Shown here: one piece after another, positions 55,914 to 56,850 of the stretch
How the letters are laid out: each line of letters opens with the position of its first letter
How positions within the stretch are numbered: position 1 is the first letter of the stretch
Origin: a virus
Taxonomy: Duplodnaviria; Caudoviricetes
Reading direction: 5' to 3' (one strand)
Length of the DNA: 57,588 nt
Virus record (IMG/VR): IMGVR_UViG_3300031707_000018
Location: 1-57,588 of that record
Position numbers and translations under genes: made by a program
The notes under the pieces: model-generated
Database searches by the model: none
What the model saw: the letters and a program-made list of their open reading frames with translations, nothing else
What the model was told of the DNA's origin: nothing

Positions 55914-56704
55914 CCGCCGCCTCCTAATATACCTTCTCATTCTACACCTATGTCATAGCCAGAACCAGATTCCCTCCCTCCTAAAACACGTAGCCTAGCA
56001 GACCCACCACTTGAGCTGGTTCCAGCTGAGCTGGCCAGCTGGAGAGGGTCCTAATGGAGGTTCCAAACGCCGCATATATTCTGGGTCCCGTGTTGATTAT
56101 TGGTTAGATAATCAGCAAGTGTTCCACGGTACCGGGGTAGCCAAGTGGAATGCGTTGAGCCTCATGGTCAATAGACCAAGCAGCTAATGCTGCATCATAG
56201 GCTATCAACGCATCGAGCTAGCTATCTCAGTACATGGTGCATGTAGCTGGTTAGCTGAACAGTGATCAATGCTCAACCGTATGCAGCTGGCTCTCCACGC
56301 TGGCTGACAGCATAGCTTGGCTACGCCTATGCTTAGCTGGATGTTGAGCAGTAGTGTGAGCACCTATCCTCCATAGTGCCTCAACAGCACTGATGGTGTG
56401 AGCTAACAGTTAGCTGAGCTGATGTGAGCAGCACTGAGATCAGCTAGCTGTGTGCATGAGGATCAGCCGTGACCAGTAGGCGTTGATCACTGGGTATCGT
56501 AGTGAGTGATAGCCAATACTCACTGAGTCAGCTGTTGACTCAGCTGCTATTAGCTGGCGTTCAAGCACAGCCAGTGAACTAGCAGCTGAATGGGTAGCAG
56601 CACTACCAGTTGGGTGGAGCAGCTGGACACTCTGCCTGTAGCGTAGGAGGACAGGCCCCTGCTTGGGTAGCTCTCACATCGAGCGTCAGCTCATGAGCTA
56701 GGGT

Positions 56705-56766
56705 TATACCCAAACATACTCAGTTACAACATACCCAGGGTCAACATACCCCTGGGTGCATACCCC
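56705..56766 (+). repeat. Short direct repeats (A)ACATAC(C/T)C
   Basis: TTATACCC, AACATACTC, AACATACCC, AACATACCC, TGCATACCC. Confidence 0.5.
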
Positions 56767-56819
56767 ATGTTGGACATGCTGCATGCAGCTTAGCTGGGTT
56801 CGATTCCCAGCTGGGGTAG
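56761..56819 (+). ncRNA. Truncated tRNA-like structure (acceptor stem + T-arm)
   Basis: TACCCCA/TGGGGTA stem and CTGGG-TTCGATT-CCCAG T-arm; only about 26 nt between them, no anticodon loop, no CCA. Confidence 0.5.
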
Positions 56820-56850
56820 CAGCTCAATAGTGAGCATAGGAGATCATGCC

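Follow-up and report, generated by a model that had tools for sequence, protein, structure and literature searches.

What is the function of a long non-coding stretch at the point where a phage genome switches its direction of transcription? The question is raised by IMGVR_UViG_3300031707_000018, a Caudoviricetes record from IMG/VR. The window analyzed here was the entire record, a linear sequence of 57,588 bp with a CheckV completeness of about 43 %. The minus strand carries all genes from 151 to 55940. Plus-strand genes start at the ATG at 56851, and between the two blocks lies a divergent gap of 889 nt (55941-56829). Its GC content is 0.52 compared to about 0.61 elsewhere in the record, and it coincides with a minimum of the cumulative GC skew which, because the contig is incomplete, can be called only local. 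An earlier note on this DNA had described the gap as free of open reading frames (ORFs), low in GC and divergent. This held: no ORF in the gap survives comparison because relatives differ there by 1-nt indels. The earlier note had further proposed that 56091-56820 is a single structured RNA of about 730 nt. Here we arrive at a more differentiated view. Most likely, the gap is the control and leader region of an early plus-strand operon of ORFan genes, with the hairpins acting mainly in the plus-strand transcript. More specifically, and with slightly less than even confidence, we read it as a composite, structured early leader or non-coding RNA of the plus strand which would be processed at a tRNA mimic resembling the t-elements of plant mitochondria. 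A plus-strand transcript is favored because of a wobble signal in the 5' domain (domain 1), because strand-specific tRNA-like modules show pair-keeping changes and because these elements are oriented toward the early genes. The parts of the region are as follows.

56012-56041, no strand assigned: cluster of AGCTGG words, Tandem Repeats Finder (TRF) period 15; candidate promoter or operator words
56084-56280, plus strand: domain 1, a rod-like imperfect hairpin of 197 nt with 73 pairs, 11 of them G·U, and a three-way junction at its tip
56281-56600, plus strand: AGCT-rich, moderately structured stretch with the verified short hairpins TGTTGAG/CTCAACA, AGCTAAC/GTTAGCT, AGTGAGT/ACTCACT and CTGAGTCA/TGACTCAG
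56634-56716, plus strand: hairpins GCCTGT/ACAGGC and TGCTTGGGTA/TACCCAAACA with inner TAGCTC/GAGCTA; folding at chance level (z -0.3)
56713-56757, plus strand: repeats of about 15 nt (AACATACCC...; TRF period 15, 2.6 copies) and the hairpin ACCCAGGG/CCCTGGGT, stem verified
56748-56818, plus strand: tRNA-like element U1 with acceptor-like stem, non-canonical middle hairpin, T arm and discriminator A56818
56819-56853, plus strand: leader with the hairpin GCTCA-ATAG-TGAGC (56822-35), a Shine-Dalgarno sequence AGGAG (56838-42) and the ATG at 56851, as aligned from five copies

Is the region richer in hairpins than expected? All 14 stem pairs listed in the earlier note were recovered at their positions, and two of the stems contain one G-T pair each. 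With a perfect stem of 7 bp or more and a loop of 3-40 nt as the criterion, 11 hairpins were found in the 730 nt of 56091-56820. The controls were:

200 mononucleotide shuffles: 1.4±1.1
200 shuffles preserving each xAGCTx word: 3.0±1.7, maximum 9
76 other 730-nt windows of the record: 2.8±1.8, maximum 7

Folding of the whole region gave z -5.1 for the plus and -4.5 for the minus strand (20 shuffles each). In a sliding 150-nt scan the mean z was -1.8 in the gap and -0.3 outside. Part of this apparent structure, i.e. many of the short stems, is due to enrichment of the self-complementary word AGCT, which is 4.3-fold over-represented in the gap (29 copies in 889 nt). AGCTG occurs there 18 times compared to 2.7 expected, and TTAGCTG has five plus-strand copies in the gap and a single one elsewhere in the record. 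The z-scores of the sub-regions were obtained with shuffles which preserve the xAGCTx words:

56091-56272: -7.2
56273-56480: -2.4
56480-56600: -1.7
56600-56720: -0.3
56720-56820: -4.3

The stem-loops are therefore not near-contiguous, as had been claimed, but unevenly distributed and concentrated in the rod at 56084-56280 and in a 3' module at 56720-56820. AGCT words do not explain the folding of domain 1; the folding of 56600-56720 is not above chance. Apart from domain 1 the centroid fold of the region consisted of local hairpins only. Tandem units of about 80 nt were not apparent: autocorrelation had no peak near 80 and TRF reported only three short arrays.

Domain 1 folded on the plus strand into a minimum free energy (MFE) structure of -90.7 kcal/mol, which equals the centroid (z -8.5). 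Its tip is formed by TGCGTTGA/TCAACGCA, termed a multibranch before, and encloses the TGGTC and GCAGC hairpins. Two further segments, 56091-56117 and 56122-56150, had been taken as local hairpins. They do exist as stems; in the MFE structure, however, they are paired long-range with 56213-56272. On the minus strand the MFE was -68.4 kcal/mol (z -5.2) and the outer part of the rod was lost. When G·U pairs were forbidden, -62.5 kcal/mol was reached on either strand. Permitting G·U pairs changed the plus-strand energy by -28.2 kcal/mol (z -5.1, the shuffles having -12.3±3.1) and the minus-strand energy by -5.9 kcal/mol (z +0.6). The earlier proposal that G-T pairs favor a plus-strand transcript is reinforced by these numbers. 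The G·U gain is the best single argument in this study and suggests that the structure of domain 1 is used on the plus strand, which has the sense of the downstream genes and is their non-template strand. A strand-neutral alignment of the two arms of the rod yielded 10 G·T against 4 A·C mismatches on the plus strand, a ratio that is suggestive and by itself not significant. In a second palindrome (56485-56558) the ratio was three G·T to zero A·C on the same strand. Domain 1 also matches its own reverse complement (nhmmer, E 9e-5).

At the other end of the region, about 30 nt before the first start codon, lies U1. Its acceptor-like stem is formed by 56748-54 (ACCCCTG) and 56811-17 with six of seven pairs, its T arm by 56794-98 and 56806-10 around the loop TTCGATT. 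The 23-mer 56796-56818 is identical to the 3' end, comprising T arm, acceptor strand and discriminator, of tRNA-Arg(CCT) genes on 12 genome contigs and in one viral record; these are low-GC Bacteroidales genomes and a phage-like record of 410 kb. The 72-nt fold of U1 showed an acceptor stem, a middle hairpin and a T arm (z -1.7). A canonical tRNA was considered and dismissed: ARAGORN at default settings reported no tRNA gene in the window, Rfam had no tRNA match up to E 10 within 55800-57000, and only T arm and acceptor are tRNA-like. A tRNA array was rejected as well. With ARAGORN relaxed to an 80 % threshold four poor candidates emerged (4.5 per kb inside compared to 1.9 per kb outside), a density not clearly above that of the remaining record, and none at 90 %. 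ARAGORN and Rfam gave no transfer-messenger RNA (tmRNA) either, and only about 40 nt separate the acceptor from its upstream pairing partner.

Which known element, then, does U1 resemble? mascRNA of MALAT1 (Rfam RF01684) is a tRNA-like processing signal cut by RNase P and RNase Z. The match of U1 to the mascRNA-menRNA model RF01684 reached 20.7 bits, below the gathering threshold of 42.5 (E 0.25), so that U1 is not a member of this family. According to the available text on plant-mitochondrial t-elements, these are tRNA-like signals cut by the same two enzymes and carry the motif GGTTCRANYCC (PMC1920247). In that form the motif is fitted by GGTTCGATTCC of U1 and by GGTTCGACTCC of a second unit, U2, from a relative; two further units, U3 and U4, deviate at one position each. 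The acceptor-like stems of U1-U4 have six or seven of seven pairs. With a motif-conforming T arm and a good acceptor-like stem in a non-canonical cloverleaf, U1 thus carries the sequence marks of a t-element or tRNA-like processing signal. A further likeness is its location downstream of a long non-coding stretch and directly upstream of a predicted mRNA 5' end. In contrast to t-elements and mascRNA, U1 resides in a bacteriophage and not in an organelle or nucleus, it is known from sequence alone, and four different versions precede different genes, one of them with an encoded CCA.

The modules were compared between relatives, for which the first plus-strand gene served as the query. Four homologues were found, and through them five metagenome contigs (L016-L020). 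L016 and L019 are identical to the window over the gap. Because the genomes consist of mosaic blocks, and because in L019 the identical block (55400-57100) reaches into coding sequence, this identity says nothing about constraint. L018 is identical over 56504-56628, divergent over 56629-56707 and then has 585 nt in place of 56708-56813. The insert contains the tRNA-like unit U4 with an encoded CCA, a gene for an 81-aa Cys-rich protein and the tRNA-like unit U3. L020 begins with a copy of 56711-56842, followed by a 57-aa gene, unit U2 and the homologue of the first gene. Both inserted genes are absent from the window and are bracketed by tRNA-like and leader modules:

L018, 447-692: 81-aa Cys-rich ORFan gene
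L020, 141-314: 57-aa ORFan gene

A module of tRNA-like unit, small hairpin, Shine-Dalgarno sequence and ATG could thus be aligned in five copies located before three different genes. In the leader that follows U4 the hairpin has another stem, TGTGCA/TGCACA, and a loop of the same kind, ATTG. An additional copy of the leader word was not found in the IMG/VR scan. The bracketing points to a cassette-type exchange of genes, and as the swapped genes lie between such modules, the latter are probably recombination linkers as well.

Do the substitutions between copies respect pairing? Between U2 and U3 all three stem substitutions keep the pair via G·U, and they do so on the plus strand only. Changes in the T loop retain a purine where T loops carry one; one substitution breaks the closing pair of the leader hairpin. 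Between the window and L018 the hairpin 56660-69/56707-16 differs by two double compensatory changes (UA to CG and GC to AU), GCCTGT/ACAGGC by one change of GC to GU, and, judged by eye, TAGCTC/GAGCTA is replaced by TAGCTA/TAGCTA. Strains were compared using Logan contigs of four runs. Among the differences listed for the contig from run X6 only two substitutions fall into 56091-56628, both A to G (56314 and 56501). A56501G converts an A-U pair of AGTGAGT/ACTCACT, with a pair probability of 0.61, into G·U. The pairing-relevant changes are few, yet they point in the same direction and suggest that pairing is kept.

At this point the earlier proposal can be divided. A structured plus-strand RNA is upheld for the 5' rod by the G·U gain and for the 3' module by the T-loop motif and the pair-keeping changes; for the middle third it is not. 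A single, uniformly structured and conserved RNA of about 730 nt is not supported: the middle third folds no better than AGCT-preserving shuffles, the 3' part is replaced cassette-wise in relatives and the AGCTGG repeats look like DNA or promoter-type signals. The latter are conspicuous at the 5' border. The 15-mer CAGCTCAGCTGGAAC (56033-56019, minus strand) faces the minus-strand operon and precedes a methyltransferase-like gene by about 80 nt. In the relative L017 a second ORF-free gap (3457-3816) has the same 15-mer on the plus strand and many AGCTGG words at a spacing of 9-10 nt, the last copy being 16 nt before a start codon. Because the words face the downstream gene on either strand, they appear promoter- or operator-like. 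In run X6 the cluster at 56012-56041 varies by four substitutions and three indels. We also observed that the L017 gap, located about 3.4 kb past the 3' end of the window, has a plus-strand fold with z -5.7 to -6.7, calculated with mononucleotide shuffles only. A sigma-70 scan of 55700-57588, made with a consensus that may not be that of the host, yielded a single weak promoter-like site (56304-56333) and nothing terminator-like, which does not exceed the numbers in shuffles.

Which polymerase might read the region? The earlier note had mentioned a candidate virion polymerase, and this context is strengthened by one of the giant ORFs:

10898-15751, minus strand: 1617-aa ORF in the virion-gene block, with the motif DFDAD at residues 983-987 (nt 12791-12805)

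Other giant ORFs flank the gene, and the genes for capsid, portal and terminase lie upstream. A search of 1.84 billion representative proteins returned 14 relatives, and in all 11 aligned sequences D983, D985 and D987 of RDFDADK are invariant. Sequence and profile searches of the PDB and the ESM Atlas were uninformative as to its identity; PHROGs returned nothing for the 1617- and the 1503-aa ORFs and Pfam nothing for three of the four giant ORFs (in the fourth, of 1841 aa, only a nuclease domain). Information came only from the fold search, for which residues 550-1350 were modeled (mean pLDDT 63, with a better core). All 49 matches listed by Foldseek in the PDB were beta'-type or largest subunits of RNA polymerases, the best being the non-virion polymerase of phage AR9 (E 2e-4). 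In VIA-align, searched against 48,161 chains, ranks 1-13 were held by largest or catalytic subunits of RNA polymerases including QDE-1 and the AR9 enzyme (Z 8.1-10.8, 109-276 aligned residues); the polymerases of phages P23-45 and P74 appeared lower in the list. Invariant DFDAD, a beta'-like fold according to two aligners and a giant protein in a virion-gene block are together the features of a DFDxD two-barrel polymerase. Judged from the model, the protein is probably a crAss-type two-barrel virion RNA polymerase, here predicted for a sediment phage of 61 % GC without a close cultured relative. The adjacent 2162-aa ORF (4413-10901, minus strand) matched a PHROG of 1954 positions annotated as endolysin (E 2.5e-55) and, weakly, tape-measure families; by its sequence it is probably a virion protein for ejection or cell-wall degradation.

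According to the available text of the report on phage phi14:2, a protein with a DFDxD motif that is packaged in virions is encoded by crAss-like phages; gp66 of phi14:2 is efficient in transcribing single-stranded or denatured DNA and inefficient on double-stranded DNA; no upstream motif is shared by the early transcripts; and two long intergenic stretches of the early region give rise to abundant non-coding RNAs whose function is unknown (10.1101/2020.03.07.982082). As far as described there, a giant DFDxD polymerase or polymerase-like protein is encoded among the virion genes of both phages, and both have a long stretch without ORFs that precedes small early genes or lies among them. They differ in that sequence similarity is absent and that the phi14:2 gap (2905-4601) is not hairpin-rich, with window z-scores of +0.7 to -2.7. 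Part of that gap scores as a tmRNA, and the phi14:2 region is reported to be transcribed, whereas ours is known as a sequence only. The tmRNA is an observation in its own right: in phi14:2 (NC_021806) the plus strand at 4031-4502 scored 46 bits with the Rfam tmRNA model against a threshold of 47 (E 2.6e-16), and ARAGORN predicted a tmRNA at 4031-4500 with an 11-residue tag, inside a region which the available text reports as abundant non-coding RNA. If the prediction holds, the present phage adds another, quite distinct genome for studying how giant polymerases of the crAss type find their first templates and what the long early non-coding RNAs of such phages do.

The leader reading can be outlined as a sequence of events. 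Transcription would enter from the AGCTGG and AT-rich words near 56012-56082, carried out by the polymerase of the host or by the giant one of the phage. The RNA would first fold into the 197-nt rod with its three-way tip (56084-56280), continue through the looser AGCT-rich stretch of small hairpins and end in the tRNA look-alike at 56748-56818. U1 might be cleaved by RNase P and RNase Z (or RNase E) of the host, by analogy to t-elements and mascRNA. This would separate a structured non-coding RNA of about 660 nt from the early mRNA, which would then begin with a small hairpin (56822-35) protecting its 5' end, ahead of the ribosome-binding site. The modules would probably serve in addition as recombination linkers, in the manner of the promoter-early stem-loop (PeSL) cassettes of T4-type phages. 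If true, the phage uses tRNA look-alikes as punctuation to cut a structured leader from early messages, and the same look-alikes double as portable joints for swapping early genes. Organelles and one mammalian non-coding RNA provide examples of such a design; in the literature searched, its use in phage early operons was not described.

Several points weigh against this reading. The middle, 56273-56720, is structured weakly or not more than motif-preserving shuffles, and outside domain 1 the local z-scores are alike on both strands. Taken alone, U1-U4 fold no better than shuffles (z -1.7, +0.7, 0.0 and -0.7). The hairpin ACCCAGGG/CCCTGGGT shares sequence with the 5' acceptor strand of U1, which can pair there instead, and AGCT pairing can lengthen the T stem of U1. 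G·T is also the best-tolerated mismatch in single-stranded DNA. Two one-sided strain changes fall into improbable pairs (56314-56328, probability 0.005; 56634-56656, 0.33). The comparison is five contigs deep and comes from one kind of habitat. AGCTGG words at a spacing of 9-10 nt look like DNA signals, although they could equally be placed in a 5' leader RNA. Finally, transcription, the RNA ends and processing are all steps that we infer from sequence features.

What else might the region be? It may work as DNA, for regulation, polymerase loading or as an origin. AGCTGG arrays would then bind a protein of the phage or the host or act as promoters, and the palindromes would extrude as cruciforms or single-stranded loops at which an injected two-barrel polymerase or the replication machinery starts. 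We regard this as possible, though less likely than the leader reading. It agrees with the spacing of the AGCTGG words, with the 15-mer, which in two separate gaps faces the gene downstream on one strand or the other, and with the position of the gap at a switch of transcription direction, low in GC and at a skew minimum. Palindromes fold on both strands, including the minus strand of domain 1, and the candidate two-barrel polymerase is encoded in the window. The preference of phi14:2 gp66 for single-stranded or denatured DNA and the lack of a shared early promoter motif, as given in the available text (10.1101/2020.03.07.982082), fit as well. Yet the outer part of domain 1, about 35 pairs, relies on G·T pairs which are found only on the plus, i.e. 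non-template, strand, and an N4-type hairpin on the template strand needs the opposite. At the DNA level there is no rationale for the T-loop and acceptor geometry of U1-U4 or for wobble-keeping changes. Pfam and PHROG scans recognized no initiator, partition or repressor gene nearby, and in a contig that is 43 % complete the skew minimum counts only locally. Early hairpins read by a virion RNA polymerase are known from coliphage N4, where they serve as promoters. The present phage, which probably brings its own polymerase into the cell, resembles N4 in having hairpins ahead of its early genes. Different from N4, the candidate enzyme is two-barrel and beta'-like and not T7-like, the hairpins are many, long and heterogeneous instead of short and on the template strand, and the wobble pairs favor the non-template strand. 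The N4-type mechanism considered in the earlier note is therefore not supported.

The hairpins might, on the other hand, be evolutionary debris: decayed tRNA genes and leaders of early-gene cassettes lost by recombination, with leftovers and AGCT by-products devoid of present function. Arrays of tRNA genes with such a size and GC content are common in large phages. Weak similarity links the segment 56600-56720 to 56769-56845 (nhmmer E 0.02, reciprocal E 0.14), partial copies of U1 or leader words occur at 56232-56257, 56550-56600 and 56583-56601, cassettes were gained or lost between relatives exactly at the modules, and the middle of the region lacks significant folding. Nevertheless domain 1 is not tRNA-like and is not accounted for by AGCT words (z -8.5, or -7.2 with the words kept); compensatory and wobble-keeping changes indicate that pairing is currently selected, and even the relaxed ARAGORN search disclosed no convincing decayed tRNA. 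We consider debris improbable. The same holds for a bolder variant of the RNA reading, in which 56084-56818 would be a 'takeover' RNA: non-coding, abundant and some 0.7 kb long, it would be the first product of the injected two-barrel polymerase after infection. The 197-nt rod and junction would form its 5' domain, and a tRNA-like handle at the 3' end would attract host tRNA enzymes such as RNase P, RNase Z or the CCA-adding enzyme. This RNA would correspond to the early non-coding RNAs of phi14:2 and be functionally comparable to GOLLD and ROOL. Still less probable is that 56084-56818 is one discrete, self-contained new 'ornate' RNA of the GOLLD/ROOL type beside tRNA-type elements. About 735 nt free of ORFs in a phage, next to a tRNA-like neighbor, would suit such an RNA. 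GOLLD and ROOL are RNAs of phages and prophages, 'often near tRNA islands' in the available text (10.1101/2024.12.08.627333), and abundant early non-coding RNAs were reported for phi14:2 in the text cited above. Size class, phage origin and nearby tRNA-type elements are thus shared, as far as that text describes them. But Rfam gave nothing at the gathering threshold in the window and, at E up to 10 within 55800-57000, only sub-threshold rows at chance level; GOLLD and ROOL membership was rejected on both counts. The centroid, domain 1 excepted, consists of local hairpins and does not support the long-range, multi-pseudoknot architecture of those RNAs; the region is mosaic between relatives, with its 3' quarter replaced in L018, and the middle is not significantly structured. 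The absence of known families, tRNA and tmRNA included, agrees with the novelty that the earlier note had assumed. In the relatives L017, L018 and L020 Rfam likewise found nothing at E up to 1. Lastly, U1 could be a phage attachment site (attP) that contains the 3' part of a host tRNA gene. Here the 23 nt shared with tRNA-Arg 3' ends are the attraction. Several points speak against it: the matching tRNAs are from low-GC Bacteroidales and the 410-kb phage-like record, unlikely hosts for a sediment phage of 61 % GC; the 5' partner strand is present as well; three other, different tRNA-like units precede neighboring genes in relatives; and no integrase family was detected among the scanned ORFs of the window, L017, L018 and L020, which comprise a part of all ORFs of an incomplete genome. 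We judge this to be very improbable.

For the leader reading, the closest precedent concerning gene exchange are the PeSL cassettes of the T4-type phages RB49 and phi1, described in the available text as having sigma-70 promoters and terminator hairpins (PMC2839356). As there, short repeated stem-loop cassettes lie between small ORFan early genes, and genes are gained, lost or replaced at the cassettes; in our set a repeated cassette borders the swapped ORFan genes of close relatives. Unlike the PeSL cassettes as described in that text, the present modules have no sigma-70 promoter recognizable in the consensus scan, and each holds a tRNA-like unit.

The surrounding genes were as follows.

29231-30955, minus strand: major head protein
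33999-36092, minus strand: portal
37946-39868, minus strand: terminase
55341-55940, minus strand: methyltransferase-like gene, the last of the minus-strand block
56851-57318, plus strand: first plus-strand gene, a 155-aa ORFan

The minus-strand block also encodes the giant ORFs of 1503, 1617 and 2162 aa and the 1841-aa protein with a Pfam nuclease domain. The first plus-strand gene is without a Pfam or PHROG family, has no relative in the IMG/VR scan and no protein match in public phage records. For the plus-strand genes of the window and the next eight ORFs on the contig of a relative, Pfam and PHROGs gave no family except for one PHROG row at chance level. Such an ORFan content is typical of phage early genes. 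The DNA of the gap had no match in public phage records. All of the 15 runs listed as containing the stretch are DNA metagenomes from sediment or aquatic sources, with no RNA run among them. The methyltransferase-like gene had a single locus of 33 % identity in the IMG/VR scan. A gene of PHROG 6247, annotated as DNA topoisomerase (51397-52946, minus strand), adjoins a DUF5662 gene; it has no relative in the IMG/VR scan and public phage records match at less than 50 %, the matches listed being about 45-50 % identical to proteins of Pseudomonas, Salmonella, Xanthomonas and Brevundimonas phages. Over the whole record the word CAGCTG was counted 95 times compared to 23±4 in dinucleotide shuffles, coding and non-coding copies pooled. 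In the coding parts this excess probably reflects the codon pair CAG-CTG.

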